A DNA stretch of 36,676 nucleotides from positions 1 to 36,676 of the forward strand of contig CAZYZU010000002.1 of assembly GCA_964652065.1 (NCBI GenBank). The letters run 5' to 3'. This document shows positions 2,093 through 32,558 of this stretch, piece after piece. The stretch is from an uncultured Muribaculaceae bacterium. GTDB taxonomy: Bacteria > Bacillota_I > Bacilli_A > RF39 > UBA660. The notes beneath the pieces were generated by a model. The model saw only the letters and a list, made by a program, of their open reading frames with translations. It was not told where the DNA came from and made no database searches. Each line of letters opens with the position of its first letter. The stretch's first letter is position 1. The position numbers and the translations under genes are program-made.

Positions 2093-2099
2093 TAACTTG

Positions 2100-2690: not shown

Positions 2691-2762
2691 TTTGTAATAA
2701 TTTATCTATTTTATGATAAAATTGTAGTAATAGATTTATATATATTAAAAGTGAGGATTATA

Positions 2763-10446: not shown

Positions 10447-10542
10447 GTTGACCTCCTATAAAATAGTATGTAAGTAAGATTCTTTTATTAATTTTTATTT
10501 CGACATATGTTTTATTTGTAGTATAATTAAATAGGTGATAAT

Positions 10543-11118
10543 ATGAAAGATAAAATAATAATGATAATATTAGTAGTTGGAATTATAATAATTCCTAAAA
10601 ATGTTTTTGCAGAAAGTGATACTGTTAAATTAGCTAAATGTGTTGATGGTGATACAGCAAGATTTATAATTAATGGAGTAGAATACTCTACAAGATTTTT
10701 AGCAATAGATACTCCAGAGACAGTAAAACCTAATACTAAAGTACAACCATATGGAAAAGAGGCTACTAATTATACCTGTAATAGTTTGAAAAAAGCTACT
10801 GAAATAGTTTTAGAATATGATGATAATTCTACTAAAGAAGATAAATATGGGAGAAGACTTGCTTGGATTTTTGTAGATGGAGAATTATTACAAAAAAAAC
10901 TTATTTCTAAAGGATACGCAAAAGTCGCTTATTTATATGATGATTATAAATATACTGATATTTTAAAAAATGCAGAGAAAAAAACTAAAAAAAATAAAAT
11001 TGGTATTTGGTCTGATAGTAATCAAGAATCACTTACTGATGAATCAAGTATTTCATTAAGTGAAATTTTAGAGAAATTATATCGTTATGTTAGTAAAGAA
11101 ATTAAAAGTATGTTATAA
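10543..11118 (+). CDS. nuc: secreted thermonuclease (staphylococcal nuclease/SNase family)
   Basis: Signal peptide, then DGDTARF...RFLAIDTPET...PYGKEA...GRRLAWIF, the canonical SNase blocks. Confidence 0.85.
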   Translation: MKDKIIMIILVVGIIIIPKNVFAESDTVKLAKCVDGDTARFIINGVEYSTRFLAIDTPETVKPNTKVQPYGKEATNYTCNSLKKATEIVLEYDDNSTKEDKYGRRLAWIFVDGELLQKKLISKGYAKVAYLYDDYKYTDILKNAEKKTKKNKIGIWSDSNQESLTDESSISLSEILEKLYRYVSKEIKSML

Positions 11119-11144
11119 TAACTTCAAAAGAAAGGAAGTTATTT

Positions 11145-11825
11145 ATGGCAGAAGAAAAAAAGAAAAAAACAACTTCAAAAAAAGGTAATACAACAAATAA
11201 AAAGAATACTAAGTCTAGAAATGTTGAAAAAAAAGAACAAATAGAAAAATCAAATACAATTAAAGTTGAAATAAATAAAGATAAATTAATCAAAACTGTT
11301 TTGGTTACTTTGGGAATTATAATTTTATGTTTAATATGTTTTTTTGCATCAACAATAAATTCTAAGGAATATTCTAAAACTAGCACTGCTTCTTCAACAG
11401 AAGACGTTAGTGAAGAAGATACAAGTGGTTTAGAACAGGCTACAAGTGATGCTGGAAGTGTTTCTGACGATGAGCGTGTTGAACCTGATGAAATAGGCGT
11501 ATCAGATTATTTAGAATTATATAAAGCTGATAGTGATTCATTAGTTTTATTTTCAAGACCAACATGTGAGTATTGTAAGTTAGCAACACCAATACTTGAA
11601 AATATTATTTATGAAACAGGGGTTAAGATAAATTACATTAATGTAGATAATTTATCTGATGATGATAAAAGTGAATTGATAGCTTCAGATTCATACTTTG
11701 AACAAGGTTTTGGAACACCATTAATAATGGTTGTTGGAAATAATTCTATTGTTGATAAAATAGAGGGATTAACTATAATGGATGGTTATAAGTCATTTTT
11801 TAAACAATATGGATTTATAGATTAG
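11145..11825 (+). CDS. membrane-anchored thioredoxin-fold protein (CxxC = CEYC)
   Basis: K-rich N-terminus, one TM, acidic linker, then LVLFSRPTCEYCKLATP thioredoxin-like motif. Confidence 0.6.
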   Translation: MAEEKKKKTTSKKGNTTNKKNTKSRNVEKKEQIEKSNTIKVEINKDKLIKTVLVTLGIIILCLICFFASTINSKEYSKTSTASSTEDVSEEDTSGLEQATSDAGSVSDDERVEPDEIGVSDYLELYKADSDSLVLFSRPTCEYCKLATPILENIIYETGVKINYINVDNLSDDDKSELIASDSYFEQGFGTPLIMVVGNNSIVDKIEGLTIMDGYKSFFKQYGFID

Positions 11826-11834
11826 GAGATTAAT

Positions 11835-12290
11835 ATGGGAATTGTATATAATAAAGCTTTAGAATTTAAAAATAAACATCCTATGACTATAGCTTGGAGA
11901 CTTAAACAAAATTCTGAAATAGTAGAAAGACATTTGAATCCAGGAGAAAAAGTTTTGTATGCTTTTGCGGCACAAAAAAATGATAATCCATTGAACTTTA
12001 TTTCAACTGCAGTAGTTGCACTTACTAGTGAAAGAATTTTAATCGGTAGAAAACGTGTTGTTTTTGGATACTTTTTAGATTCAATTACACCGGATATGTT
12101 TAATGATTTAAAAATACTTAGTGGTATTATTTGGGGAAAAGTATATATTGATTATGTAAAAGAATTTGTAACTCTTTCTAATGTAAGTAAAGATGCTTTA
12201 AGTGAAATTGAAACATCTATATCATCGTTTATGATGAATGAAAAGAAAAAATACGGATATAATAAACCTCATATGAATGGAGAAAATTAG
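11835..12290 (+). CDS. bacterial PH-domain (YokE-like) protein
   Basis: 151-aa ORF with an RBS. Weak resemblance to bPH/YokE proteins. Terminator at 12289..12313. Confidence 0.35.
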   Translation: MGIVYNKALEFKNKHPMTIAWRLKQNSEIVERHLNPGEKVLYAFAAQKNDNPLNFISTAVVALTSERILIGRKRVVFGYFLDSITPDMFNDLKILSGIIWGKVYIDYVKEFVTLSNVSKDALSEIETSISSFMMNEKKKYGYNKPHMNGEN

Positions 12291-17029: not shown

Positions 17030-17035
17030 ATATGT

Positions 17036-17257
17036 AGATGCATTGATATCGAGGAGTATATAATAAAAATTTTTAGAGAGGTTATGGTTGCTGAAAATAA
17101 CTAATTGATATTATAGAAGGTAGCGATGGAGCATAGTTATTGAAAATAAGTAAATAATTCCGGATAATTCCGTTAAAAATATTGAGATTATTATTTAATA
17201 ATAAATTAAGGTGGTACCACGAACTATTCGTCCTTATAGGATGGGTAGTTTTTTTTT
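17036..17257 (+). promoter_or_regulatory. T-box leader, probable Val specificity
   Basis: Stem I AGAGA bulge (about 17075). Candidate specifier GUA at 17120-17122 in GAAGGUAGC. T-box sequence AATTAAGGTGGTACCACG (17204-17221). Terminator CTATTCGTCC/AGGATGGGTAG plus T9 (17224-17257). Confidence 0.8.
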
Positions 17258-17271: not shown

Positions 17272-18027
17272 ATGGATAGAGCTATTGAAGAGTTTAAAAT
17301 TTATACTGATTCTTATATTGAAATAAGTGATAAATGTGTATTAAAAATAGATCATACTTTTCGAGTCATGGAATTATGTAAAAAGATTGCTTTGAGTTTA
17401 AATTTAAATAAAGAAGACATATCTTTAGCAATGTTATGTGGACTATTACATGATATTGGTAGATTTGAACAATGGAAGAGATATAATACTTTTGTAGATG
17501 GTAAAAGTATTGATCATGGCGATTTAGGAGTAGAAATTTTAACAACAAATAAATTTTTAAGAAAATTTATTGATTCTGAAGAATTTGATTCAATTATATT
17601 AAATAGTGTTTTATTTCATAATAAATATAATATTTCAAATGAATTGAGTGAGCGTGAAAAACTTTTTTGTAAAATAGTTAGAGATGCTGATAAAATTGAT
17701 ATTTTATATTTATATACAATTGGGCATTTAAGTGTTGATACAAATAATGAAATTTTTAGTGATGATGTATTAAATTCTTTAAGAAATAATAAGTTAATAG
17801 AAAGAAAAATGAAAAAGACTAAGGCAGATACTCTATCTGTATCACTGGGATTTGTTTTTGATATTAATTTTAAAAAAAGTATTGAAATATTAAAGAAAAA
17901 TAATTATATAAATAAGGAAATTGATATTTATAAAGAAAAAACTAATAATTTAGATTTTATTAATGAATTAGAAGAAGTTAGATTAATAATAAATAAATAT
18001 ATAGAAAGTAGGTTAGAATTATGTTAG
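17272..18027 (+). CDS. HD-domain phosphohydrolase
   Basis: ATG at 17272 after [18 protein letters not shown] motif. Stop overlaps the valS start (ATGTTAG). Confidence 0.7.
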
Positions 18028-18932
18028 ATAAAAAATATAATCATATAGAAGTAGAAGAGGGTAAATATAATGAATGGATAGAAAAAGGATATTTTTCATC
18101 GGGAGATATGTCAAAGAAACCTTTTTGCGTAGTTATTCCTCCACCAAATGTTACAGGTAAACTTCACTTAGGTCATGCTTGGGATGTAACACTTCAAGAT
18201 ATTATAATTCGTTATAAAAGAATGCAAGGATATGACTGTTTATGGCTTCCAGGAATGGATCATGCAGGTATTGCTACTCAAGCTAAAGTTGATAAAAAGT
18301 TACGTGATGAAGGAGTTAATCCTAGATCATTATCAAGAGAAGAATGGACTAAAAAAGCTTGGGAATGGAAAGATGAATTTGCACAAACTATTCATTCTCA
18401 ATGGGCTAAGATGGGTATTAGTGTTGATTATAATAAAGAAAGATTTACATTAGATGATGGTCTTAATCAAGCAGTTAACAAAGTGTTTATTGACTTATAT
18501 AATAAGGGTTTAATATATAGAGGAGAAAGAATTATTAACTGGGATCCTGTTCAAATGACAGCTTTATCTAATGAAGAAGTTATTTATCAAGATGATCCAG
18601 GGGCATTTTATCATTTGAAATATTTTATTGAAGATAGTGATAAATATTTAGAAGTTGCGACAACTCGTCCTGAAACATTATTTGGCGATACTGCAGTAGC
18701 AGTTAATCCAGAAGATGATAGATATAAAGATTTAATAGGAAAGAATGTTGTTTTACCAATAGTTAATAAGCTAATTCCAATTGTAGGAGATTCTCATGCT
18801 GATCCTGAGTTTGGTACTGGTGTTGTTAAAACGACACCCCTTGGTACAAACTCAATATTTACAAGGGTTAGCGAAGGGATAATGAACATAATTAATCAAT
18901 TATTTATACAAAGAAAAGAGGTAAATGCATAA
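18021..18932 (+). pseudogene. valS: 5' fragment of bacterial-type valS (native codons 1-270, then a 33-codon element-derived tail)
   Basis: [19 protein letters not shown] block ... [11 protein letters not shown]. The frame then diverges into TTPLGTNS... at 18831. The continuation is found at 30840. Confidence 0.9.
18832..18848 (+). repeat. left terminal arm (attL, element side)
   Basis: CGACACCCCTTGGTACA is an inverted partner of 30818..30836. Confidence 0.7.
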
Positions 18933-21349
18933 TGTTAGATAAAAAATATAACGCACAAGAAAAAGAAGAAAAATGGTTAAATTATTGGAAAGAAAATGGA
19001 GTTTATGATTTTAAACCAGATCAAAGAGAAGTTTTCTCAATAGATACTCCACCACCAACAGTTAATGGAAAAATACATATTGGACATATTTTTTCATATT
19101 CACAAACTGAAATGATTGCAAGATATAAAAGACTAAGAGGGTATAATATCTTTTATCCATTTGGATTTGATGATAATGGATTACCTAGTGAAAGATTAGT
19201 AGAAAAAGAACAAGGCAAAAAAGCACATGAAATTGGAAGAGAAGAATTTTCAAAATTATGTTATGAAACTACTGATAAATATGAGGCTGATTTTCAAAAC
19301 TTATTTAGTAAAATGGGAGTTAGTACAGATTGGAATATTCATTACAAAACGGTAAGCCCATCAACAATTAAAATTAGTCAAACATCATTTTTAGATTTAA
19401 TTGATAAAGGACATTGTTATCATAAAGAAAGTCCTGCATTATGGTGCAATGAATGTTTAACATCAATCGCACAAGCAGAACTTGAAACAAAAACAATTAA
19501 AACAACATTTAATTATGTTAATTTTAAAACAGTTGAAGATGGTGAAGAATTTACAATAGCAACTACTAGACCTGAATTATTACCAGCCATTGTATGCGTA
19601 TTTGTAAATCCTAAAGATGAAGAACATAATCATTTAATTGGAAAAACTGCTCATATTCCAGTTATAGATGTTGAAGTACCAATTATGGGTGATGAAAAAG
19701 TAGCAATTGATAAAGGTACAGGAGTTGTTATGTGCTGTACATTCGGTGATCAAACTGATATTGAATGGTGGAAGAAATATAATTTACCACTTAAGTATAT
19801 TTTTACTGCAGATGGTAAAATTATTGATTCTGTACCAAATTATGGTGGAATGAAAATAAAAGCAGCTAGAAAACAAATTGTTGAAGATTTACAGGCAGGT
19901 GGCTTTATTGTAAAAATAGAAGAATTAGAACACGAAGTACAAACACATGAAAGATGTGGAAGAGAAGTAGAATATTCAGTAATGAAACAATGGTTTATTG
20001 ATATTATGAACCATAAAAAAGATTTCTTGAAAATTGGTAATGAAATAAAATGGCATCCTGAACATATGCATAATAGATATAATGAATGGGTTGAAAATAT
20101 TTTATGGGATTGGTGTATTTCAAGACAAAGATATTTTGGTGTACCATTTCCAGTATGGTATTGTAAGGATTGTGGAGAACCTATCTTTGCTAAAAAAGAA
20201 GATTTACCAATTAATCCACTAACAACTAAACCACATATTGATAAATGTCCTAAATGTAATTGCAGTGAATTTGTTGCTGAAACTGATGTAATGGATACTT
20301 GGGCAACTTCATCTGTTACACCACTTATTAATATGAGATACGGTGAAAAAGAAAATTATGAAGACATATTAAAACCAATGAGTATAAGAACAAATGCATC
20401 TGAGATTATTAGGACATGGGATTTTTATACAATTGTAAAAAGTTTTTATCATTTTGGTATGCGTCCATGGAATAATGTTATGATTTCAGGATTTGTTATG
20501 GCAAGTAAAGGTGAAAAGATTAGTAAAAGTAAAGGAAATGCTAAAGTTGAACCAATAGATGTTATTAATCAATATTCTGCCGATGTAGTTAGATATTGGG
20601 CTGGATCAGGAAGACTTGGAACTGATATTGTATTTAGTGATGAAACTTTATTAAGAGGAAGAAAATTAGTTAATAAAATATGGAATGTCTCAAAATTTAT
20701 TGAAATGCATTTACAAGATTATGAAGATAAAGAGTTTAATAATTTTGAATATGTAGATAAATGGATATTGGGAAAATTTCAAGAAATGGAAGAAGGATTT
20801 GTTAAATATTTAGATGATTATGAAGTTGGATTAGCACTTAATCATTTAGAAAAATTCTTTTGGAATTTCTGTGATAATTATATAGAAATAGTTAAGCATA
20901 GACTATATAGACCTGAAGAATTTGGAGATGAACCAAGATATTCAGGACAAAAAACTGTATTTACAATATTATATAAATTATTACAAGACTTTAGTATATT
21001 CTTCCCATTTATTACTGAAGAAATATATCAAGAACTATATCATGGTAATAAATCAGTTCATTTAACTGAAATTAAACCATTAAATTTTGATTTTAGTAAA
21101 GAAATTATTAATGGTGATAAAATGATTGATATTATAAGTCAAGCAAGAGGAGAAAAATCAAATAATAATTTATCTTTAAAAACTCCTATAAAAATATTAG
21201 AATTAGGTGTTAATGAAGAACTTAAAAATGCTATAGAATCTTCTATTAAAGATTTTAAAGCAACATTATTTATAAAAGATTTAAAAATAGATATTTCTAA
21301 TGATGATAAAATAAATAAAATTGAATTAGAAATTGAAACAACAGAGTAA
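18932..21349 (+). CDS. valS: valine--tRNA ligase, divergent type-2 (archaeal/actinobacterial-like), element-encoded
   Basis: 805 aa. HIGH NGKIHIGHIFSY. KMSKS-like GEKISKSKGN. FPFGFDDNGLPSE, GTGVVMCCTFGDQTD, WCISRQRYFGVPFPVWYC. No C-terminal coiled coil. ATG overlaps the upstream TAA. Confidence 0.85.
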   Translation: MLDKKYNAQEKEEKWLNYWKENGVYDFKPDQREVFSIDTPPPTVNGKIHIGHIFSYSQTEMIARYKRLRGYNIFYPFGFDDNGLPSERLVEKEQGKKAHEIGREEFSKLCYETTDKYEADFQNLFSKMGVSTDWNIHYKTVSPSTIKISQTSFLDLIDKGHCYHKESPALWCNECLTSIAQAELETKTIKTTFNYVNFKTVEDGEEFTIATTRPELLPAIVCVFVNPKDEEHNHLIGKTAHIPVIDVEVPIMGDEKVAIDKGTGVVMCCTFGDQTDIEWWKKYNLPLKYIFTADGKIIDSVPNYGGMKIKAARKQIVEDLQAGGFIVKIEELEHEVQTHERCGREVEYSVMKQWFIDIMNHKKDFLKIGNEIKWHPEHMHNRYNEWVENILWDWCISRQRYFGVPFPVWYCKDCGEPIFAKKEDLPINPLTTKPHIDKCPKCNCSEFVAETDVMDTWATSSVTPLINMRYGEKENYEDILKPMSIRTNASEIIRTWDFYTIVKSFYHFGMRPWNNVMISGFVMASKGEKISKSKGNAKVEPIDVINQYSADVVRYWAGSGRLGTDIVFSDETLLRGRKLVNKIWNVSKFIEMHLQDYEDKEFNNFEYVDKWILGKFQEMEEGFVKYLDDYEVGLALNHLEKFFWNFCDNYIEIVKHRLYRPEEFGDEPRYSGQKTVFTILYKLLQDFSIFFPFITEEIYQELYHGNKSVHLTEIKPLNFDFSKEIINGDKMIDIISQARGEKSNNNLSLKTPIKILELGVNEELKNAIESSIKDFKATLFIKDLKIDISNDDKINKIELEIETTE

Positions 21350-21354
21350 TTTTA

Positions 21355-21382
21355 AAACATAGATAATTTCTATGTTTTTTTT
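21355..21382 (+). terminator. intrinsic terminator after element valS
   Basis: AAACATAG-ATAATTT-CTATGTTT followed by a T-run. Confidence 0.7.
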
Positions 21383-21407
21383 GAACAAAATTGGAGGTGA
21401 TAAATAA

Positions 21408-22165
21408 ATGACAGTTTTTAAAATTGAAAAACAAAGGATTTTACTGTAATGAGTAATCATCATTTAAGAGATAGAAACTTAACATATAAGGCTAAAGGAT
21501 TGTTATCATTCATGATATCTTTACCAGAAGATTGGGATTATTCTTTAGCAGGTTTGACAGCGATAAGTAGAGAAAGTAAGGATGGAATAAGATCAATTTT
21601 AAAAGAATTGCAGGATAATCATTACTTGGAAATAGAAAAAGTAAGAGGAGAAAAAGGATATTTTGAATATAATTATTTAATATATGAAAAACCACATTTT
21701 TTGTCATATGAAATTGACAATCAAAATCCATGTATGGAAAATCCACATCTGGATGAACCAGATATGGAAATATCAATACAAATAAATACTAATATATTAA
21801 ATACTAAGGAACAAATAGATAAAGGTGATAAAACAAAATCATCTTTTTTTATTGCTGAAGAACATAATGGCTTAACATTAAATTTGATTAATCGTGGTTA
21901 TATTAATGAATCTGATTTACAAGTTTTTTACTATGATAAAATGTATGATGATTTATTAGATGATGATAATTCATATAGAGATTTGTTAATTATATCTGAT
22001 TATGTTGTAAGTAGAGTAATAAAAAGAGATTTCAAAGATGATGATGGTAATGTAATAAAAAATAAATTTGGTTATTTAAAAGAGGGGATATATGTAAATA
22101 TCAGAAGAAGTCATTTGGATTTAGATGATTTATGGGGATTAAATGATGATGATATTGAAAGATAA
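21408..22165 (+). pseudogene. wHTH replication-initiator-like protein (plasmid/ICE Rep type), N-terminus frameshifted
   Basis: Strong RBS GGAGGTGA before ATG 21408 gives MTVFKIEKQRILL*. The main ORF (21449..22165, MSNHHLRDRNLTYKAKGLLSFMISLPEDWDYS) lies in another frame, and its upstream extension reads KDFTV. Confidence 0.55.
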
Positions 22166-22293
22166 TTTTTGTTTATCCAATTTTATATGATAAAAGAAAA
22201 TTATATTATAATACTAAAAACAGAATTATCCTTTATTGTGATAACTTTTTAATATAGAAAAATTGATATAGTAAAAAAATAAACTAAAATGTA

Positions 22294-22322
22294 TTGACTT
22301 AATTCAATAATAGTAGTATTAT
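22294..22322 (+). promoter_or_regulatory. promoter of leader ORF/RSH/YcaO/precursor unit
   Basis: TTGACT, 17-nt spacer, TATTAT. Confidence 0.5.
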
Positions 22323-22356
22323 TTAACTTAAATTATTTGAAAGGGGATTCTAAACT

Positions 22357-22482
22357 ATGAATAAACTCTTATTAGAAAAACAATTTAATAAAAATAGTTT
22401 TTATTACAAAATCATTTGCAACAATGACTGTTTATGCCTTTCCCTTGATAATATTACTATGTGTAAAAGAGTTCGACTTTAA
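22357..22482 (+). CDS. 41-codon Cys-rich small ORF (leader peptide or second RiPP substrate)
   Basis: MNKLLLEKQFNKNSFYYKIICNNDCLCLSLDNITMCKRVRL. RBS AAAGGGGA. The stop codon lies inside the 5' arm of the downstream terminator. Absent from the ORF track. Confidence 0.4.
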   Translation: MNKLLLEKQFNKNSFYYKIICNNDCLCLSLDNITMCKRVRL

Positions 22483-22511
22483 AATTATTATGTTTTAAAG
22501 TCGTCTTTTTT
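22473..22511 (+). terminator. intrinsic terminator/attenuator immediately upstream of the RSH gene
   Basis: CGACTTTAAA ... TTTAAAGTCG stem followed by TCTTTTTT. Ends 18 nt before ATG 22529. Confidence 0.65.
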
Positions 22512-22528
22512 ATAAGAAGGAGTATTTT

Positions 22529-23968
22529 ATGAGTGAAATTACTGTTGAATATTTATTAAAAAAGATAAAAGAATATAATCCAGAAGAAGAAAAGTCGATA
22601 ATGAAAGCTTATGAATTTGCCAATAATCTACATAGTGGTCAAATTAGACAGAGTGGTGAACCTTATATATCTCATCCATTGAATGTTGCTTATATTCTTG
22701 CTGAAATGAATGCAGATAAAGATACAATTTGTGCAGGATTATTACATGATACTTTGGAAGACACCAATACCACAAAAGAAGATATTTCACATGAATTTAA
22801 TGCTACTGTTGCTAACTTGGTTGATGGAGTAACAAAAATGAGCAAAATGAATTTTTCTTCTAAGCAAGCACAAAATATGGCAAACACAAGAAAAATAATT
22901 ACAGGAATTACTGAAGATGTTAGAATAATAATTATAAAGTTAGCAGATAGATTACATAATATGAGAACATTAGAATTTAAAAGTGAGTTTAAACAAAAAG
23001 AAAATGCACTAGAAACTATGGAAATATTTGTTCCACTTGCTTACTACATTGGTGCATATAGAATAAAATCTGAGTTAGAGGATTTATCTCTACAATATTT
23101 AAAACCAGATATGTATAAGACAATAAAGGAAAAACAACAAAAAATAGAATATGAAAGCAGAGATTGCTTACAAGAAATGTTAGGAAAAATTAAATCAATG
23201 TTAGAAGATAAGGATATTCCTAATGAAATTAAAGTTAGAACTAAAAATATTTATGGAATATACAAAAGATTAAATGATGGACATAAATTATCTGATATTC
23301 ATGATTTACTAGCATTGAAAATAATGGTAGATGAGATTGATAATTGTTATAGAACTTTAGGTATGATTCATCAAGAATATCATCCAATCAATGATAAGTT
23401 TAAAGATTATATTTGTAATCCAAAAACAAATATGTATAGATCATTACATACTACTGTTTTTGGACCTGATGATAGATTAGTACAAACACAAGTAAGAACA
23501 TTTGATATGGATAAGATTGCATCTTTTGGATTAACAGCATATTGGGCAGTACAAAAAGGGAAAGCAAGAGATGTTATGCAAAAAGATTTAAAAGAAAAAT
23601 ATCAGTTTTTTAAATCTTTAACTGAAATCAATACAATGTTTGGGGATAATCAACAATTTGTAAGTCAAGTTAAATGCGAATTATTTGCCGACAAAGTTTA
23701 TGCATACACCACCAAAGGTGATATAATTGAACTTCCTAAAGGTTCAACACCAATTGACTTTGCTTATAAAATTCATACTGATATTGGAAACACAATGGTT
23801 GGGGCTTTTGTAAATGATGAATATGTTCCTGTTGATTATATGTTAAGGAACAAAGATAGGGTAAAAATAATTACTGATGATTTATCATTTGGTCCAAGAA
23901 ACGATTGGGAAGAAAAGGCGCAAACCACATATGCAAAGAGAAAAATAAAAGAATTTAGTAAAAAATGA
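22529..23968 (+). CDS. truncated RelA/SpoT homologue (HD hydrolase + synthetase-like + TGS; no C-terminal regulatory domains)
   Basis: HPLNVA...LLHDTLEDT, DRLHNMRTL (hydrolase). VRTKNIYGIYKRL, DLLALKIMV, YRSLHTTV, QTQVRT (synthetase-like). TGS VYAYTTKGDIIELPKGSTPIDFAYKIH. Ends at the position where the helical/ZFD/ACT region normally begins. Confidence 0.85.
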   Translation: MSEITVEYLLKKIKEYNPEEEKSIMKAYEFANNLHSGQIRQSGEPYISHPLNVAYILAEMNADKDTICAGLLHDTLEDTNTTKEDISHEFNATVANLVDGVTKMSKMNFSSKQAQNMANTRKIITGITEDVRIIIIKLADRLHNMRTLEFKSEFKQKENALETMEIFVPLAYYIGAYRIKSELEDLSLQYLKPDMYKTIKEKQQKIEYESRDCLQEMLGKIKSMLEDKDIPNEIKVRTKNIYGIYKRLNDGHKLSDIHDLLALKIMVDEIDNCYRTLGMIHQEYHPINDKFKDYICNPKTNMYRSLHTTVFGPDDRLVQTQVRTFDMDKIASFGLTAYWAVQKGKARDVMQKDLKEKYQFFKSLTEINTMFGDNQQFVSQVKCELFADKVYAYTTKGDIIELPKGSTPIDFAYKIHTDIGNTMVGAFVNDEYVPVDYMLRNKDRVKIITDDLSFGPRNDWEEKAQTTYAKRKIKEFSKK

Positions 23969-23984
23969 AGTTTGAGGTGATGAT

Positions 23985-26111
23985 ATGATAAATTGGAAAA
24001 AATTCAAACCTATACTTGTTGTTCCTTCGATACCTACTGAAGATGGAATTAGATTTTTATGTCAAGATCAGCAATTGGATATTAATGGAGAAATAGTACC
24101 AATTTTGTGGAAAATTCTTTCTTTATGTAATGGATATAGAACATTAGATGAAATATTTGATGAATCTAAGATAGAATATGATCTTATAAAAGATATTTTA
24201 TCTGAGTTAAATGAACAGAACCTGATTTTTGATGCGTGCGAACAATATAAATATTTTCATTCTATCAGCAGTTATCCTGCAAAATATTTGCAATTATTAA
24301 GTGAAGAAGAAGTAATAAATCATAAAAAAAGTCAGAGAAAAGAAGTTAAAAAAGGAAAAAGTTTATCTTTTAATAATGATCAGGAATCATGTTTATATAA
24401 ATTGCAACTTAATAGAAAGTCCTGTAGAAATTTTTCAAAAGATAGAAAGTTATCATTAAATCAGCTTGGAAATATATGTAATTATGCGTATTCTTTAAAA
24501 AGACATGCAACCCCAAGTGGTGGAGCTCTTTATCCTTTAAAAATCTTTTGTATCGTAACACAAAATCAAAAAGATTTTGATTCTGGTTATTATGAATATG
24601 ATAATGAAAATGATAAGTTGGTACTATATAATTGTAATCCTGATAATGAGCAATTAAAATATTGCTATAATGATGAAAAATTAGCTTTCAATTCTTCTAT
24701 ACAAATAGTTATATGTGCAGACTTTGAAAGACAAGCATATAAATATTCAAATAGAGGTTATAGATTATCTCTAATAGAAGCAGGACAAGTAGCACAAAAT
24801 ATATCTTTATATTGTGAAGAAAAAGGACTATCAACCTGTGAACTTGGTGGTCTGCTTGATATTCCACTTGCTAAGGAATTAGATATATATGATAGTAATA
24901 TTTATCCTGTTTTAGGAATAGCAATTGGATACTCCGATTCTAAAGAAAATTTTAGTTATTCACAATTTTTGTCTAAGTTAACCAATGAATTTGTTGGCGA
25001 AAATAAACCAATAAAAAGTTTTGGAATTAATTACTTGAATATTTTTGATTCATCATTTTATGGTGCTTGGGCAAAATATGGAAATGATTCAAAAAGAATT
25101 GCTGGTGCAACAGCTCTATCTTATAATGAGTCAATTTGCAAAGCAATTATTGAAGGATATGAAAGATATCGTTCTGAAAAAGTAAGAATAGATTACGTTG
25201 GAGAATGTCAAAATTCAAAAAGATATTTTAATCCTGATGATATTGCACCTTTATCAAGCAAACAAAGAATATTGTGGGGATTAAAAAATTATACATTTGG
25301 GGATAAAATAGAATGGACAAAAGATATAACTGGCAAGTATTACATTCCAACGGATTTTGTTTTTTATGGACATAATAAAAAAGAAAAATTATTTTTAAGT
25401 GATTCTTCTGGTATAGCAGCATATTCGGATTATGAAACAGCAAAAAAAAGAGCTCTATTAGAACTTATTGAAAGAGATGCAATAATAAGAAATTGGTATA
25501 ATCAAATATCTGCACCAAAAGTTAATCCAGATATAGTATCTCAACATATAAAAAATAGAATTGAATATTGGAAAAATAAAGGAAGAACAATTCATATAAT
25601 GGATTTAGATTCAATATCTGCATCGGTTTTTCTTGTAGTTATAGTAAGTGATGAATATCCTTGCTTTGTAAGTGGATCATCTGCAGTTATTGATACGGCC
25701 GATAGTGCAATGCTAAAAGCATTGCAAGAAGCAGAATACAATTTGCTGTTAGCAATAGAAAATCCTTTTGAAAATGCACCTGAAATTGACAAAATAAAAA
25801 CCCCTCAAGATCATGGAAGGTATTATCATTTTTTAGAGAATGCAGATAAGATATCTTGGCTATGGAAAAGTAAACTTATTTCTGATAAACAAATTAAAAA
25901 AATTACAGATTTATCTAAGGCAATTGATGAATTAGATACTGTATTTGTTGATTTATCAGATAAGGACTCATCTATAAAAGTAGTTAGAGCTGTTTCTAGA
26001 AAACTTGTTCCTATAAGTTTTGGATACCATAGGGATTATTATTTGCATCATATATTACAAGAAAATGGATTTGATGAAAAAATAAGAAATCTTCCACATT
26101 ATTTTGCTTAA
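23985..26111 (+). CDS. fusion protein: PqqD-like RRE + SagB-type (nitroreductase-fold) dehydrogenase + YcaO cyclodehydratase
   Basis: N-terminus ILWKILSLCNGYRTLDEIFDES...LNEQNLIF (RRE-like). RKSCRNFS...TPSGGALYPLKIF...YKYSNRGYRLSLIEAGQVAQN...CELGG (SagB). AIIEGYERYRS...SSGIAAYSDYETAKKRALLELIERDAI...PQDHGRYY (YcaO). Confidence 0.85.
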   Translation: MINWKKFKPILVVPSIPTEDGIRFLCQDQQLDINGEIVPILWKILSLCNGYRTLDEIFDESKIEYDLIKDILSELNEQNLIFDACEQYKYFHSISSYPAKYLQLLSEEEVINHKKSQRKEVKKGKSLSFNNDQESCLYKLQLNRKSCRNFSKDRKLSLNQLGNICNYAYSLKRHATPSGGALYPLKIFCIVTQNQKDFDSGYYEYDNENDKLVLYNCNPDNEQLKYCYNDEKLAFNSSIQIVICADFERQAYKYSNRGYRLSLIEAGQVAQNISLYCEEKGLSTCELGGLLDIPLAKELDIYDSNIYPVLGIAIGYSDSKENFSYSQFLSKLTNEFVGENKPIKSFGINYLNIFDSSFYGAWAKYGNDSKRIAGATALSYNESICKAIIEGYERYRSEKVRIDYVGECQNSKRYFNPDDIAPLSSKQRILWGLKNYTFGDKIEWTKDITGKYYIPTDFVFYGHNKKEKLFLSDSSGIAAYSDYETAKKRALLELIERDAIIRNWYNQISAPKVNPDIVSQHIKNRIEYWKNKGRTIHIMDLDSISASVFLVVIVSDEYPCFVSGSSAVIDTADSAMLKALQEAEYNLLLAIENPFENAPEIDKIKTPQDHGRYYHFLENADKISWLWKSKLISDKQIKKITDLSKAIDELDTVFVDLSDKDSSIKVVRAVSRKLVPISFGYHRDYYLHHILQENGFDEKIRNLPHYFA

Positions 26112-26157
26112 CATTTAAAATGTTAATATATATTTATATATGAAAGGAGGTGATATT

Positions 26158-26271
26158 ATGGATAAGAAAGTTTTAAATTTCAAAAGTGTTAAATATACAA
26201 AATCAAACTCATTAGCAGCATGCGTAACTGGTGGTGGTGGTTGTGCTTGTGATGATGGTACAGGCGAATAA
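26158..26271 (+). CDS. 37-aa RiPP precursor peptide candidate (azol(in)e-type core)
   Basis: MDKKVLNFKSVKYTKSNSLAACVTGGGGCACDDGTGE. Near-consensus RBS GAAAGGAGGTGA 5 nt upstream. Terminator follows. Absent from the ORF track. Confidence 0.75.
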   Translation: MDKKVLNFKSVKYTKSNSLAACVTGGGGCACDDGTGE

Positions 26272-26288
26272 TCATTATTTGAGTTATA

Positions 26289-26317
26289 ACATCAGATTTT
26301 AATCTGGTGTTTTTTTA
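26289..26317 (+). terminator. intrinsic terminator after precursor gene
   Basis: ACATCAGAT / ATCTGGTGT stem followed by T7. Confidence 0.7.
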
Positions 26318-26371
26318 TAATTAATTATAATTATCATCTGATATTAATTGGGTAAGTAAAAAATGTAGCTA

Positions 26372-26815
26372 CTAACTACATTTTTTTGTCTTTCCTAGGA
26401 TATCATCTATTGAAATTTTATAATATTTTGCAAAATCTACTAATAAAGAAGTAAGTATTAATGTTTTTCCTAATTCATACTTAGAATAATTTGACTGATC
26501 TGTTTGTATGATTTTAGCAATTTTTTCTTGGGTATCATTATGCTTTTTTCTAATGTTTTTTAGATTGTTAGCAATGATATTTATATTTAATTCCTGATTT
26601 ATTATTTCTATATTTTTATTATTAGATAATCCACAAATATAATCTATACTTATATTAAAATAATTGACAAAATCATTTAGTTTTAATAATGGTATTGTGT
26701 CAATTCCATTTTCCCAACCTGCATAGGTAGATCTACTAACACCTAAAATTTGTGCCATTTCATTTTGTGTTTTATCAAAGTTTTCCCTAATATCTTTCAT
26801 TCTATTATAATCCAT
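26372..26815 (-). CDS. XRE-family regulator with two tandem HTH domains
   Basis: TQNEMAQILGVSRSTYAGWENG and TQEKIAKIIQTDQSNYSKYELG repeats. Confidence 0.85.
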   Translation of the reverse strand: MDYNRMKDIRENFDKTQNEMAQILGVSRSTYAGWENGIDTIPLLKLNDFVNYFNISIDYICGLSNNKNIEIINQELNINIIANNLKNIRKKHNDTQEKIAKIIQTDQSNYSKYELGKTLILTSLLVDFAKYYKISIDDILGKTKKCS

Positions 26816-26920
26816 GTAAACACCTCTTTAATAATTTTCTCATTTATAAATAAATAATTTAAAAAGTGTCGGGTATAGTCCTAAAATGTGATATAATATT
26901 TAAATGAAAGAGGTGATTTT

Positions 26921-27214
26921 ATGTACTTATCATTTAGAAATTTTTTTGGTATTGCAGTCAAAAGTTTATTAATTACTTTATGTATTGCTTTGTGTTTTGG
27001 GTTAGTGATTATTAATTGTAATTTTGCAGAATATATATGTAAAATTACAAGTATTCCAAATAATCTTGCATTAACTGTTATGAGTCCTGGTTTTTATAAT
27101 GAAGTAGTTATTATTACTAGTGTATTTGAAATAGGATTTTTAGTTTATATTTGTAATAAACTTCTTAAGTATCCTAAAATAAATGAATTGTACGAAAGAA
27201 TCTATTATTTATAA
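26921..27214 (+). CDS. small polytopic membrane protein (unknown; immunity candidate)
   Basis: 97 aa with 2-3 hydrophobic helices. RBS AGAGGTGA. Confidence 0.5.
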   Translation: MYLSFRNFFGIAVKSLLITLCIALCFGLVIINCNFAEYICKITSIPNNLALTVMSPGFYNEVVIITSVFEIGFLVYICNKLLKYPKINELYERIYYL

Positions 27215-27299
27215 ATATTATTAGTTAATATTGTTTACATATCGTAGTTTTAAATATATAATAGAAAACTACTAGCGAAAAGTATTGGAAGGTTATAAT

Positions 27300-27659
27300 A
27301 TGAATAATGAAGAATATGAAATGTTTTTTAATTTAATTGCAGTATTAGAAAAAGAAAAGAGAATAAATAAAAAATTTTACAATTCACCAGATACCAAATT
27401 TATTAAAAAAAATGAATTTGTTCTTTCTAATGATGTAAAAAAGGGATTAATATTATTTGAGTATAAAAGATATTTTTTATTAGATATTTATATAAGTGAT
27501 AGTAACAATATCTTAAATGGTCTATTAAACCTTAAAATAGAATCAAAAGAAGATGCAGAAATAGAATATAATAATTACATAGAATATGTAGAAAAAACAA
27601 GTGTCTTGCAGATAATGAAAAATAAAATAGAAAAAAATAATCAACCCCTTATAAAATAA
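27300..27659 (+). CDS. hypothetical protein
   Basis: About 119 aa from ATG 27300. No family recognised. Confidence 0.45.
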   Translation: MNNEEYEMFFNLIAVLEKEKRINKKFYNSPDTKFIKKNEFVLSNDVKKGLILFEYKRYFLLDIYISDSNNILNGLLNLKIESKEDAEIEYNNYIEYVEKTSVLQIMKNKIEKNNQPLIK

Positions 27660-27944
27660 GGACAAAACAAATAAAAAATCGAAAAAGTGCTTGAATTGGT
27701 ACTATAAGGTGTTTTTATTGTTCCAATATTATGCCTTAATTGGTACGAAAAAAGTGTTGATTTATCCTTGTCAAGTAGTATAATAATGTAAAATGAAATA
27801 AATGTGAGAAGAAAAAACACTTCTTGCATTTTTTTTGTTTAAAAAGTGTTGACAAGATAATCAAAAGAATATAAAATAAAAAATAATTTTATATGTAACT
27901 TTGATGGCAGTATTTTTCAAAGAACAATGTTGGGAGGAAACTCA

Positions 27945-28049
27945 ATGATATATGGGGATATTACTGCTTTTTTATTTAAAAATCTTAATGAACGATTAAT
28001 TGATTATCATGGATTTTCAACACCGATATTGAAAGAGAGATTGTTTTAG
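27945..28049 (+). CDS. 34-codon small ORF ending in the terminator stem
   Basis: MIYGDITAFLFKNLNERLIDYHGFSTPILKERLF. RBS GGGAGGA 6 nt upstream. Absent from the ORF track. Confidence 0.3.
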   Translation: MIYGDITAFLFKNLNERLIDYHGFSTPILKERLF

Positions 28050-28084
28050 GGACTTCTAGCCCCCAAAATTGTCTCTCTTTTTTC
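28032..28084 (+). terminator. long-stem intrinsic terminator/attenuator before the ArpU-like gene
   Basis: 16-bp stem AAAGAGAGATTGTTTT/AAAATTGTCTCTCTTT with one mismatch, 17-nt loop, then TTTT. The RBS and ATG 28101 follow immediately. Confidence 0.65.
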
Positions 28085-28100
28085 GTAGGAGGGTAAGGTT

Positions 28101-28556
28101 ATGGAAATATTATTACGAAAAGAAACAATAAGAGAGTTTGATGTAACATCATGTAAGGAGAATTTAGAAAAAATAATAACAGAGTATATTAAAGCAAAAT
28201 ACAGTTATATAAATATTAAAAAGCAGGGAGAAGAATATTACAATTCATCATCTGGTGTTAATTATGATTATAGACCTGAATGTTTTACTATTAAATATAG
28301 TGATAGAGTTGCTAATAAGATTGGTTTTAAAATAGATAATGAAAGAGAAGCAATAGAAGTAGGATATAAAATCAATGAATTATATAAAAAGTTTACTGAC
28401 GGAGAAAGAGATTTCTTTGATATTATTTTGCTTAATGGTAATGCTCAAAAATTTGTAGAAGATAAATACAGATTATCCAAACATGGTCTTGAGCCAATAA
28501 AACAAAGTTGTATAGTAAAATCAGCACTTCATTTTGGAGTTGCAGTTTATAGATAA
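28101..28556 (+). CDS. possible ArpU-family / sigma region-4-like transcriptional regulator
   Basis: 151 aa. Size, position and the C-terminal helix-rich segment (ERDFFDIILLNG...YRLSKHGLEPIKQSCIVKSALHFG) resemble phage ArpU regulators. Weak call. Confidence 0.3.
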   Translation: MEILLRKETIREFDVTSCKENLEKIITEYIKAKYSYINIKKQGEEYYNSSSGVNYDYRPECFTIKYSDRVANKIGFKIDNEREAIEVGYKINELYKKFTDGERDFFDIILLNGNAQKFVEDKYRLSKHGLEPIKQSCIVKSALHFGVAVYR

Positions 28557-28810
28557 TATTTCCATAGGGGCTTTATGCTCCTTTTATTTTGGAACAATTT
28601 ATGAGTTTATAGGGATCTCATTGTCAAAAAACTATGAAAGGAATGATTAAAAATGATGCAATTTATTTTAAAAATACCATAAATTAGTTTTTTTATTAAA
28701 AAACGCTTGCAAAAATCATGTTTTTAAGTGATTAATATATTAGAAGAAATATCTTATATAAAGCCATTTAAACGGCATATTTCAAATGTTAAGTTGGAGG
28801 TTGATAAGTT

Positions 28811-30802
28811 ATGAGCAAAAAAAGAAAGCGATTGTTATATTTGATTATTTTAGTTCTATTTTTTTTAATTATAATAGTATCTTTTATTTTTATTAATAAT
28901 ATAAAAAATAATAATAAAGATGTTAATGAATTAAATTCAGAACAAGAAGTTGAAAATGTTAAAGAAAGCAAAGAAGATGATGATGAACAAATAATAGAAG
29001 ATAAGGAAGATAAAATAGATGATGTTAATGAAACATCTGATGGCACTTCAAAGAACAATAGTAATAATGGTTCATCAAGTAATTATAATGTTACTACTGA
29101 TTCAACAAACAATACTTCTTCAAATAATAATAAAGTAACTCCACAATCTCCGCCTAATAATGATGAAACAATAAAAAAAGAAGAACCAGTACAACAAGCA
29201 CCACAAGAAGATTTAAGTAAGGTTGCAAATCCAAATGATTTCTTCTATTCAATAACTGGTGGTAAAGTAGAGTTTAACTCTAATACTGGTTGTATGTCAG
29301 CAGGAGATGAAATAGCACTTATAGATGTTGTTGATGTACAGTATTATAGATGCTATGAAGTATCATCAAAAGCAAATACTATTATGGGTTATTTCCTAAA
29401 TGTATTTTGTGCAAGTGGAAAAATAAAAGTTGTAATTGTAAAAAACTTATCTCGTTTAGGTAGAAGTAATTTTGAATGTGGTTATTATATGGATTATTAT
29501 TTTCCATCAGCCAATGTTAGATTTATGACTGTTCAAGAAGAAGTTGATACAAATGATGCATATAGTAGTAACAATGAATATGCACCTTTAAACAATTTTA
29601 TGAATGAAAAATATTCACGAGATTTATCAAAGAATATAAAAAATTCTAAAAGAGTAAAACAAAAAGCAGGGGAATATATTGGTAGCAATAATTCTCCATA
29701 TGGTTATAAAAAGGATCCTGCTGATAAACACCATCTAATAATAGATGAATATTCATCAACTATAGTTAAAAAGATATATGAATGGTATTTAGAAACAGGT
29801 TCTCAGGGAGAAGTTAGAAAAAGATTGTTTGAAAATAAAATTCCAACACCTGCTATATATCGCAATTATAAAACTATGACAGAAAAATTAAATAATCCAT
29901 ATCAATGGTCTGGAAGAACTATTAGATATATTTTAACAAGTCAAATGTATATTGGTAATATGGAACAACACAAGTATGAGAAAAAAAGTTTTAGAAGTAA
30001 AAAACTTTCTAGAGTTCCTAAGGAAAAATGGATTATAGTAGAAAATAAACATGAACCTATTATTGATAAAGATACATGGGATAAAGTTCAAAATATGATT
30101 AAAAACAATTATAAGCGGGCATCTACAAGACCACCAGAGTTATTTACAGGTATGCTTATATGTCATGAATGTAAACATAGAATGAGTATATCTACTAGAG
30201 ATAAAATTGGAAAAGATGGTACTTTTTATCATCATCAATACACCCAGTGCAATTATTATAGAAAAAATAGGAATTTAGGGGTTTGTTCTCTTCACTCAAC
30301 AAATTATTTAGAACTTGAAAAAGATGTTTTAAAGAAAATTGATGAGATTTGCAATAAATTTATAAAACTAATTAGTTATCAAAAAGTTACTAATGGAACA
30401 AAAATGGAAATGAGTTCTTATGAAAGAATATTAAATGAAAAAATTATTAAATTAGAATTTAATTTATCAAAAATTGATTGTCAAATTGAAAAATTATATA
30501 TGGATAGGTTGAATGATGTTATTTCAGTAGACACATATCAAAAAATATCTGCTAAATTTGAAACTGAAAAGGAACAATTAAAAACAACTCTAGAAGAAAT
30601 GAAAAATACATATATTCAATATCAACAAGATAATAATCAACAAACAATTTTATCAGCAAAAGAATTATCGGAAATGTATATAAAGCATAGAAAGAAACTT
30701 GATAGAGAATTGATAATGAAAATAGTAGATAGAATAGAAATACATGAAGATAAAAGTATAGATTTATTTCTAAAAATTAAGCCATTAGAACAGTTAATGT
30801 GA
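28811..30802 (+). CDS. chimeric ORF: TM/low-complexity exported-protein N-terminus fused to a large serine recombinase lacking the catalytic-Ser segment
   Basis: From about aa 203: GKIKVVIVKNLSRLGRSNFE, FMNEKYSRDLSKNIKNSKRVK, PYGYKKDPADKHHLIIDE, zinc ribbon CHECKHRM...CNYY..C, coiled coil. The first ~200 aa are unrelated (TM helix, D/E- and N/S-rich tracts). Confidence 0.8.
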   Translation: MSKKRKRLLYLIILVLFFLIIIVSFIFINNIKNNNKDVNELNSEQEVENVKESKEDDDEQIIEDKEDKIDDVNETSDGTSKNNSNNGSSSNYNVTTDSTNNTSSNNNKVTPQSPPNNDETIKKEEPVQQAPQEDLSKVANPNDFFYSITGGKVEFNSNTGCMSAGDEIALIDVVDVQYYRCYEVSSKANTIMGYFLNVFCASGKIKVVIVKNLSRLGRSNFECGYYMDYYFPSANVRFMTVQEEVDTNDAYSSNNEYAPLNNFMNEKYSRDLSKNIKNSKRVKQKAGEYIGSNNSPYGYKKDPADKHHLIIDEYSSTIVKKIYEWYLETGSQGEVRKRLFENKIPTPAIYRNYKTMTEKLNNPYQWSGRTIRYILTSQMYIGNMEQHKYEKKSFRSKKLSRVPKEKWIIVENKHEPIIDKDTWDKVQNMIKNNYKRASTRPPELFTGMLICHECKHRMSISTRDKIGKDGTFYHHQYTQCNYYRKNRNLGVCSLHSTNYLELEKDVLKKIDEICNKFIKLISYQKVTNGTKMEMSSYERILNEKIIKLEFNLSKIDCQIEKLYMDRLNDVISVDTYQKISAKFETEKEQLKTTLEEMKNTYIQYQQDNNQQTILSAKELSEMYIKHRKKLDRELIMKIVDRIEIHEDKSIDLFLKIKPLEQLM

Positions 30803-30817
30803 TGTATGATTATGATG

Positions 30818-30836
30818 TGTACCAAATGGTTTCGTG
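30818..30836 (+). repeat. right terminal arm (attR, element side)
   Basis: TGTACCAAATGGTTTCGTG. Its reverse complement CACGAAACCATTTGGTACA matches the left arm (outer 8/8, then 6/9). Confidence 0.7.
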
Positions 30837-32558
30837 AAAATTACTCCTGCACATGATCCTAATGACTTTGAAGTTGGTAATAGACATAATTTAGAACGTG
30901 TAGTTGTTATGAATAAAGATGCTACTATGAATGAAGCTGCAGGTAAATATTGTGGAATGAGTCGTGAAGAATGTCGCAAGGCTTTACTTAAAGATTTAAG
31001 TGATGCTGATTTACTTATAAAAGAAGAAAAAATGGTTCATAGTGTAGGTCACTCTGAAAGAAGTAATGCTGTTGTTGAACCATATCTTTCTAAGCAATGG
31101 TTTGTTAAGATGAGACCTTTAGCAGATAGAGTATTAGAAAATCAAAAAAACAAGGATACTAAAGTTAATTTTGTACCTCCTAGATATGAAAAAACTATGA
31201 ATCACTGGATGACTATTACTTATGATTGGTGTATTTCTCGTCAGCTTTGGTGGGGACATAGAATTCCTGCTTGGTATAAGGATGATGAAGTTAAGGTTCA
31301 AGTTGAAAATCCTGGGGAAGGTTGGGTACAAGATACTGATGTATTAGACACTTGGTTTAGTAGTGCTTTATGGCCATTCTCATCACTTGGTTGGCCAAAT
31401 GATATGAGTTTAGTTAATAGATATTATCCTACTAATGTTTTAGTAACTGGATATGATATTATTCCATTTTGGGTTAATCGTATGACTTTCCAAGGCTTAG
31501 AATTTACAAATACTATACCTTTTAAGGATTGCTTAATTCATGGACTTATCAGGGATAAAATAGGCCGTAAAATGAGTAAGAGTTTAGGTAATGGAGTAGA
31601 TCCAATGGATGTTATTGATAAATATGGATGTGATTCCTTAAGATACTTTTTAACTACTAACTCGGCACCTGGAGCTGATCTTCGTTATGATGAAGAAAAG
31701 ATAAAATCTAGTTGGAATTTTATCAATAAATTATGGAATGCATCTCGTTTTGTACTTATGAATATAGAAGATTTAAATGATGGTTCTATAGATAAAAATT
31801 TATTAACTATTTCTGATAAATGGATATTAACTCGTAAAAATCTACTTATAAAAAGTATAATTAAAAGTATGGATAAATATAATTTCCATAATGTTGGTAA
31901 TGAATTATATAAGTTTATTTGGGAAGATTTCTGTGATTCATATATCGAACTTTCTAAATCTAATATGAGTCTTAATACAAAAAAAGTTTTACTTAATGTA
32001 TTAACTGATATTTTAAAACTTCTTCATCCATTTATGCCTTATGTTACAGAAGAAATTTATAAAATGTTACCTATAAAAGAAAAAGAATCTATTATGATTA
32101 CAACATATCCAGAATATAATAGGGAATATGTATTTATGAGTGATGAAGATATGCTTTCTAAAGTATTAGAAGATATCGTTGCGATAAGAAATGTTAAAGC
32201 AGTTAATAAAATTGGAAAAGATGCTTTAGTTAACTTTACTTGTAGTGAAGAATTGATTCCTATTTATGCGTCTCAATTAAAAATAAAAGAAGAAAATTTA
32301 TGTAGTGATGATCCAGATAATAAAGTTACTACAAATTATAAATCTAAATATATTGATATTACTTATTTCTTTGATGAAGAAATAGTTGATCAAGATGCTT
32401 TATTAGAAGAGATTAAAAAATTAGAACAATCAATTGAAAGACGTAAGAAATTACTTTCAAATGAAAATTATGTTAATAAAGCTCCTAGTAATGTAGTAGA
32501 AGCTGATCGTAAAAAGTTAGCTGAAGAAGAAGAAAAGTTAGAATTATTAAAAAAATAG
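30834..32558 (+). pseudogene. valS: 3' fragment of bacterial-type valS (native codons 271-842)
   Basis: [44 protein letters not shown]-terminal coiled coil. No RBS before the GTG. Confidence 0.9.

Follow-up and report, generated by a model that had tools for sequence, protein, structure and literature searches.

A serine-recombinase element that splits valS in an uncultured bacterium and probably brings a substitute synthetase behind the host T-box leader

Integrative elements moved by serine recombinases disrupt genes that are dispensable for their hosts, according to a review of integrative and mobilizable elements (IMEs; PMC5704250). The element described here, found in a stretch of 36,676 nucleotides from an uncultured bacterium (contig CAZYZU010000002.1; "the window" indicates this whole stretch), interrupts instead valS, the gene for valyl-tRNA synthetase (ValRS), and carries a second, complete ValRS gene, called ValRS2 in the following. 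Serine-recombinase IMEs and integrative and conjugative elements (ICEs) from Firmicutes, located in rumA or in genes of Tn5252-type ICEs, are similar in many respects: a single recombinase gene is found at one end, the identity between attachment (att) sites is very short, the site lies inside a conserved coding sequence and excision restores it exactly. They differ in that the valS element targets an essential gene and apparently brings along a substitute, plugged into the leader of the target.

The skin element in sigK and SPbeta in spsM are intervening elements in sporulation genes. There too, a large serine recombinase cuts the gene cleanly and can rebuild it; those genes, however, are required in the terminally differentiated mother cell alone, and the elements bring no replacement. 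Recombinases about 50% identical to those described here (L175-L177, around 10001..12089; loci are indicated throughout by L numbers) are found in spore-formers, directly upstream of a 132-amino acid (aa) fragment of CotE, and probably belong to sporulation-gene intervening elements of the same recombinase clade.

The nearest functional analogue documented is the thyX gene of Clostridioides difficile, interrupted by an insert carrying thyA (PMC13508786). As in valS, the insert disrupts a gene whose function is essential and brings a non-orthologous gene for that function; in C. difficile, in contrast, a four-gene insert is fixed in some lineages. To our knowledge, no recombinase, att sites, broad horizontal spread or capture of a riboswitch-type leader has been reported for it. 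Synthetase genes displaced by xenologues, and genes displaced in situ, were reportedly described by Woese et al. in 2000 and Omelchenko et al. in 2003. The outcome is alike, since relatives of the window end with a foreign-type ValRS at the valS position, behind the original leader; those displacements were inferred from phylogeny and mosaic operons, while here vehicle and intermediates are visible. A divergent second synthetase on mobile DNA, in some copies beside biosynthetic genes, is also found in self-resistance systems (mupA/ileS2, borrelidin, agrocin 84), where the resident synthetase is intact; here it is destroyed, and the cargo is inconstant. Full-text literature searches returned, for the collection searched, no report of a valS-targeting element or of such a replacement of a synthetase gene. 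With respect to known serine-recombinase elements, the novelty lies in the essential target, in the supply of a substitute and in its position behind the target's own leader.

The interrupted gene and the gene preceding it are arranged as follows:

17272..18027, + strand: HD-domain protein gene (Pfam PF01966); its stop overlaps the valS start (ATGTTAG)
18021..18831, + strand: valS 5' part, codons 1-270; the open reading frame (ORF) runs through 33 element-encoded codons to a TAA at 18930-18932
30841..32558, + strand: valS 3' part, codons 271-842, with the rest of the editing domain, KMSKS, anticodon-binding domain and coiled-coil arm

The ORF at 18021..18932 encodes ValRS residues 1-270, including the HIGH block, and ends with the 33 unrelated codons (TTPLGTNS...); the remainder of the gene resumes at 30841, on the same strand. 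The cut falls between codons 270 and 271, within the conserved editing-site motif GTGVVK/ITPAHD (the slash marks the cut). When 18021..18831 and 30841..32558 are joined, a sequence of 2529 nt is obtained, composed of 842 codons plus a stop, with zero internal stops. The joined protein scores 1083 bits (cut-off 704) with the NCBIfam model NF004349 for valine--tRNA ligase, residues 4-841 matching profile positions 2-857 of 860 in one uninterrupted alignment; the full-length colinear match typical of a bacterial-type valine--tRNA ligase (NF004349 / TIGR00422) is given by the joined ORF only. The sequence AAAA is present at both junctions (18828-18831 and 30837-30840), and any cut inside it produces an identical join. 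The insert measures 12,009 bp and does not differ from its flanks in G+C content (0.258, against 0.244 and 0.239).

An earlier note on this DNA had described valS as cut by an insertion of about 12 kb, leaving, upon joining, a single open 842-codon frame with no residue lost, and both statements are borne out. Its interpretation as site-specific insertion, not gene decay, is supported by the recombinase gene abutting the insertion site, the palindromic attP, the exact in silico restoration and the reuse of the site across hosts, all described below; the second ValRS, the truncation of the recombinase and the decayed relatives had been overlooked.

The two ends of the insert feature the following att sites and recombinase gene:

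18809..18850, no strand assigned: attL, composed of host B arm, predicted crossover AA (18828-18829) and element P' arm AACGACACCCCTTGGTACA
30818..30858, no strand assigned: attR, composed of element P arm TGTACCAAATGGTTTCGTG, predicted crossover AA (30837-30838) and host B' arm
28811..30802, + strand: large serine recombinase gene, N-terminally truncated (Pfam Resolvase, homologue alignment)

The attP reconstructed from the two ends, TGTACCAAATGGTTTCGTG-AA-AACGACACCCCTTGGTACA, is an imperfect 19-AA-19 palindrome with a non-palindromic central AA: its arms are symmetric at 15 of 19 positions (P = 2.5e-5, position fixed in advance). The central AA corresponds to bases 1-2 of the Lys270 codon, and the identity shared by attP and attB is AAAA or less. 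At other loci, 14 attL and 7 attR sequences have conserved arms, the P' arm (..ACACC..TGGTACA..) being found in 14 loci. The empty-site (attB) sequence is GGTGTTGTTAAAATTACTCCTGC; an attB 23-mer is found exactly in one relative, and most others differ from it at no more than 4 positions.

The recombinase stop, at 30802, is 36 bp before the right junction (30837), a layout shared by L165-L174. The recombinase and zinc-ribbon domains are present in the window protein, while the Pfam Resolvase domain only covers profile positions 58-144 of 145. Intact homologues, 62-79% identical, are 548-553 aa long: residues ~203-663 of the window protein align to their residues ~87-548, and the first ~86, including the Y-RLS-LED serine motif and the DDGRSGTNFDRPGW motif, are absent. 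Residues 1 to ~200 of the window protein are an unrelated segment, with a membrane anchor and low-complexity sequence, weakly similar to the gene preceding the pilin/sortase module of the sister element L001. The missing 5' part was not found upstream in any frame, nor across the whole window; a second insertion inside the gene was rejected in favor of a deletion, since no N-terminal piece exists in the window. As judged from the sequence, the deletion joined the recombinase gene to the beginning of another gene, with weak similarity to the one in L001, and probably removed a transfer or surface module along with the recombinase 5' end. Because the catalytic N-terminus is lost, the window element cannot excise by itself. 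It features a recombinase beside an att site, a palindromic attP, exact restoration of the target and empty sites in relatives; an intact N-terminal resolvase domain is lacking here and present in sister elements, whose protein is full-length (548-553 aa). Among the large serine recombinase integrative elements, the window copy thus counts as a defective member.

The gene immediately following the left junction and the leader preceding the whole unit are:

18932..21349, + strand: ValRS2, a complete 805-aa ValRS of the PRK13208 (archaeal-like) type (NF009687; HIGH, KISKS)
17034..17238, + strand: T-box leader with valine specifier GUA (Rfam RF00230, 134.7 bits, gathering score 93)

ValRS2 scores 982.9 bits with NF009687 (equivalog cut-off 738), residues 2-792 matching profile positions 6-794 of 801, and contains HIGH (as KIHIGH), KISKS and the editing motifs; a database look-up found no record of the exact protein sequence. 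It comes first in the insert, its ATG overlapping the TAA which closes the N-fragment ORF of valS (TAATG); a Shine-Dalgarno sequence (AAAGAGG) is present upstream, and only about 100 nt separate attL from the ValRS2 start, a distance too short for a leader of its own. The T-box specifier is read as valine since GTA/GTT is constant across about 60 related leaders, unlike the base following GAA (G/T/A); the same pattern, GAA-G/T/A-GTA/GTT, overturned a GGU (Gly) specifier suggested by the register of the Rfam alignment. The T-box terminator is located at 17221-17251, and the next terminator-like site was found by the scan only at 22474: the HD-domain gene, the valS N-fragment and ValRS2 follow the T-box in this order. 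Such a layout suggests that ValRS2 is co-transcribed, and translationally coupled, with the valS fragment.

The first 20 nt of valS (18021-18040) and ValRS2 (18932-18951) are identical, ATGTTAGATAAAAAATATAA, both encoding MLDKKYN. This N-terminus is common to all ValRS2 relatives examined, and the identity may be due to family conservation plus codon bias, or to old recombination. Capture of ValRS2 from an HD-ValRS2 operon was also considered, on the basis of the 20-nt identity and of an element tail loosely resembling the C-terminus of the HD protein, and was rejected: both are too weak in AT-rich, codon-biased DNA.

Uninterrupted valS genes, 68-83% identical, were found in 80 related genomes, recorded as uncultured gut Bacilli, 'Tenericutes', Mycoplasma sp. 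CAG:877 and Candidatus Onthousia, a group which we take to be RF39-like. In the nearest of them, the genes located downstream in the window (149-aa ORF, radC, mreC) are also present. Across the insertion site, the DNA of these relatives deviates from the consensus almost solely at third codon positions.

ValRS2 relatives are counted in thousands: the best 120 proteins are 84-91% identical, the 80 retained metagenome loci 77-89%. ValRS2 begins within about 100 nt after valS codons 1-270 in 12 other loci, and in 7 of the 13 left-junction loci, window included, the ORF stop overlaps the ValRS2 start. The host valS fragments of those 12 loci are only 54-76% identical to that of the window. When the 303-aa N-fragment was used as a query, 70 of the best 120 matches were truncated proteins, 288-314 aa long, all ending after GTGxxK. 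The same break is found on contigs of 0.8 and 1.1 Mb. An assembly chimera at the junction is ruled out by the same break after GTGxxK in 14 other left-junction loci, from separate assemblies. On the opposite side, intact recombinases 69-77% identical lie directly upstream of the valS 3' fragment in every context examined.

Different loci feature different stages between split and replacement. The window represents the clean split, with both halves open. In L095, L105 and L126 the recombinase is lost or broken (in three pieces in L126), and the valS 3' part is still open. In L002-4 and L101 the N-fragment is in pieces, which still end at residue 270, and the attL arm is readable: immediately ahead of ValRS2, L002 and L101 retain the P' arm of attL and valS residues 100-142, 186-210 and 242-270. 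Larger valS deletions are found in L113, L089 and L090. Finally, the HD gene is directly followed by ValRS2 in six loci (L099, L100, L129, L155, L156, L164), and in L148 and L158 ValRS2 is directly followed by the 149-aa ORF, radC and mreC, the genes which follow valS in the window. The remnant-bearing loci indicate a split ancestry for some, at least, of the replaced class; loci where remnants are absent may have changed in either direction. L090 also contains a second ValRS2-like gene (18354..20732), 51% identical to ValRS2 and located 6 kb downstream of the first, followed at 20851..20979 by a remnant of the C-terminal arm of a bacterial valS (residues 528-570).

In some pairs of loci, element and host sequences differ in their divergence. 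Between L086 and L088, ValRS2 features 98.3% nucleotide identity (synonymous divergence, dS, 0.07), against 67% for the host valS fragments (dS 1.31); the same contrast is shown by L086/L087, L087/L088 and L001/L098. Identical recombinase proteins (P0142, and likewise P0130) are found beside valS of different hosts, with different downstream genes, and L178 and L180 have the element in common and different host flanks. These comparisons indicate that the element moves horizontally between hosts. In the window, the split valS has 34-48 unique changes, against 46-50 in its intact sister L005, with no acceleration; as no excess of changes is seen in the two halves, the split appears to be recent.

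The mechanism suggested by these data may be outlined as follows. A serine-recombinase element would recombine at the AA of the Lys270 codon in valS. On integration, ValRS2 would join the host unit, formed by the Val T-box, the HD gene, the valS N-fragment and ValRS2 itself, and would most likely assume the charging of valyl-tRNA under the valine-sensing control of the host. With this substitution the host would survive the disruption of an essential gene, and would come to depend on the element. The deletion of the recombinase N-terminus would lock this copy in place, and further decay would leave ValRS2 alone at the old valS position. An element inserted in valS, with ValRS2 as an in-place substitute behind the host's own leader, is considered the likely explanation; ValRS2 is presumably active, and presumably no other ValRS gene is present in this genome.

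A number of observations weigh against this explanation. The visible part of the genome is 36.7 kb, and another ValRS gene may be located elsewhere. The promoter scan returned as many sites as expected by chance and is given no weight. In L178-L182 valS is split at the same site, the replication-initiator gene comes next and no ValRS2 is found in the first 10 kb: for the family, a ValRS2 borne by the element at that position is thus not obligatory. ValRS2 is found beside an intact valS in L027, L066, L104 and L112, and can therefore exist as a plain second copy. Finally, fragment and ValRS2 have equal dS in the pairs L105/L116, L085/L086 and L092/L105, where the fragment shows a ratio of nonsynonymous to synonymous divergence (dN/dS) of 0.05-0.13, against 0.01-0.06 for intact valS. 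A dead fragment would not be expected to behave in this way; young insertions, a block moving as a unit or a retained function of the fragment may each account for it. The block common to L105 and L116 includes only T-box, fragment and ValRS2.

The L178-L182 elements (from 10001) carry genes for a PemK toxin, a cold-shock protein, a CAP-domain protein and an acetyltransferase. The left ends L178 and L180 could not be joined with the right ends L165-L174 into a whole ValRS2-free element, as no overlap was found.

Many ValRS2 genes stand alone behind their own T-box. In some of these (L027 12790-12850; L102, L112 and L148, ~60-100 nt upstream) a conserved ORF of 12-19 codons is located between the T-box terminator and the ValRS2 start. 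Its conserved part ends with ..DYVRV; the short forms read MKFILKSDYVRV, MRFIFKGDYVRV and MKKIFWGDHVRV, the longer one, in L027, MKYIFKSDYVRVIIPLTIK, each followed by a stop. It may encode a leader peptide.

The low dN/dS of the fragments bears on a different explanation: the split would be reversible, a recombinase acting in trans restoring valS so that two ValRS types alternate, or both fragments would be made and form an active enzyme together, with ValRS2 as an extra. Both halves of the window gene are fully open, with no excess substitutions, the valS 3' ORF of L126 is open despite its broken recombinase, and reassembly in trans is possible for class I synthetases cut within CP1; the elements lacking an adjacent ValRS2 also fit. 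The 70 split N-fragments show only ~1.2 departures each from 119 near-invariant columns, in a set, however, biased to intact, high-scoring ORFs, a bias which affects the conservation tests in general. The valS 3' fragment, on the other hand, has no conserved start or ribosome-binding site: only a GTG lacking a Shine-Dalgarno sequence is available in the window, and in L105, L165 and L167 no start is found at the junction. Moreover, the cut falls inside the editing-site motif, the window recombinase has no catalytic serine, and relatives with decayed remnants show that a cell possessing ValRS2 can dispense with the fragments. Reversal or reassembly is for these reasons held to be unlikely, and it is equally doubtful that the constraint on the fragments reflects reversible switching between two ValRS enzymes.

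The remaining genes of the insert are:

21449..22165, + strand: HTH_36 protein gene, similar to replication initiators and DnaD (Pfam PF13730; PHROGs replication initiation families)
22529..23968, + strand: short RelA/SpoT homologue, 479 aa, with HD, synthetase and TGS domains (TIGR00691, Pfam); cargo
23985..26111, + strand: fusion of winged helix, SagB-type dehydrogenase and YcaO cyclodehydratase, 708 aa; cargo
26158..26271, + strand: putative precursor of a ribosomally synthesized and post-translationally modified peptide, 37 aa, Cys/Gly-rich, MDKKVLNFKSVKYTKSNSLAACVTGGGGCACDDGTGE; strong Shine-Dalgarno sequence, terminator hairpin after it
26372..26815, - strand: double-HTH XRE-type repressor gene (profile matches)
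26921..27214, 27285..27659 and 28101..28556, + strand: three small ORFs with no family matches and weak counterparts in L001

The HTH_36 gene is a conserved neighbor of ValRS2 in sister elements. Capsid, tail, terminase and lysis genes are all absent from the insert, whose only PHROGs matches are repressor, replication-initiator and integrase. IMG/VR scans, performed with the recombinase alignment and with ValRS2, returned zero relatives; the best GenBank phage match is 33% identical, and GenBank phages and PLSDB plasmids overall do not exceed 36% identity. Prophage and plasmid readings were dropped, as only distant phage and plasmid matches and no IMG/VR relatives were found. Profile scans found no relaxase, coupling protein or type IV secretion genes in the window insert. 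L165 carries a VirD4/TraG-type coupling protein, along with a 2122-aa SNF2-type protein, and the window copy looks like a deletion derivative.

The RelA/SpoT homologue scores 532.8 bits with TIGR00691 over positions 1-451 of 687, the C-terminal regulatory part being absent. Copies 76-85% identical adjoin ValRS2 in L002-4, L090, L094, L101 and L133; the gene is still beside ValRS2 where valS is reduced to remnants or undetected. It could link the charging of tRNA-Val to alarmone metabolism. The YcaO fusion and the 37-aa ORF look like a two-gene cluster for an azole peptide, similar to microcin B17; the pair is also found in L095, in the same position, as the sole cargo. Other elements carry different genes. 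In L105 (13423..22610, directly after ValRS2) a DXP-synthase-like gene, three radical-SAM/SPASM genes, a nitroreductase, an RraA-like gene and an HMGL/AMP-binding fusion are found; L116 (8037..14238, directly after ValRS2) and L002-4 contain C26 peptidase/GATase, class V aminotransferase, radical-SAM and ATP-grasp genes. The cargo is composed of pilin and sortase in L001, of a two-component system, VanW and a CAP-domain protein in L086. A PADLOC scan of the cargo gave nothing convincing, and its reading as a defense island is unsupported.

Such gene sets suggest two further roles for ValRS2. The element might be a package for swapping the target, in which the sensitive ValRS is destroyed and an insensitive ValRS2 is placed under the resident T-box, while the compound made by some copies poisons the bacterial-type ValRS of neighbors; this is improbable, as is the identification of the poison with the YcaO-modified 37-aa peptide or with the products of the small-molecule clusters of L105 and L116. 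Alternatively, ValRS2 might serve mainly for self-resistance, being insensitive to a cargo product which hits the bacterial-type ValRS, with the sensitive valS destroyed. The presence of an extra synthetase gene among biosynthetic genes is a recognized sign of self-resistance (mupirocin, borrelidin, agrocin 84), and biosynthetic gene sets repeatedly adjoin ValRS2 (window and L095; L105; L116 and L002-4). Three different such sets, however, are found in some loci and none in others: the cargo varies while ValRS2 is constant, being non-biosynthetic in L001 and L086, and the YcaO cluster is present in only 2 of about 85 ValRS2 loci. The many stand-alone ValRS2 genes behind their own T-box do not fit either, and known Gly/Cys-rich azole peptides target gyrase or the ribosome, not synthetases. 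Self-resistance is possible as a role of ValRS2, is not favored, and as its main role is quite unlikely.

An intervening element of the skin or SPbeta kind, excised during development in the sporulating mother cell, is suggested by the recombinases found beside the cotE fragment and by the several valS-targeting sister elements present in spore-forming hosts; since valS is required in growing cells, not only in the mother cell, no sporulation genes are found in the window and the recombinase is truncated, this is very unlikely. Given the uncultured source and the lack of other records for the exact ValRS2 protein, the split might also be suspected to be an artefact of assembly or binning, or a case of ordinary pseudogene decay accompanied by an unrelated insertion, but this is effectively refuted by a junction identical to the base in many independent assemblies, an in-frame join with no residue lost, and the recombinase gene and palindromic attP at the ends.

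Outside the insert, an OLE (ornate large extremophilic) RNA is present in full length in the window at 2090..2697 (+ strand; 376 bits), and after it comes a 205-aa ORF with a faint transporter-like match; the presence of the RNA is notable for a lineage of small-genome gut Bacilli.

Annotation pipelines label these loci as fragments of 'class I tRNA ligase family protein'. The recombinases targeting valS are candidate tools for integration at a site present in most Firmicutes, and the YcaO cluster, like other cargo clusters, is a putative lead to natural products. Synthetase genes are among the essential genes most often replaced horizontally, and passage from one gene to the other with no lethal gap had previously been inferred from gene trees only. 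Here a vehicle is visible: an element landing in a near-universal coding motif of valS, with a likely substitute at its end, behind a valine-sensing leader. Such an arrangement would act as an addiction device lacking a toxin: any loss other than exact excision would be lethal, and loss of the recombinase would fix the foreign gene.

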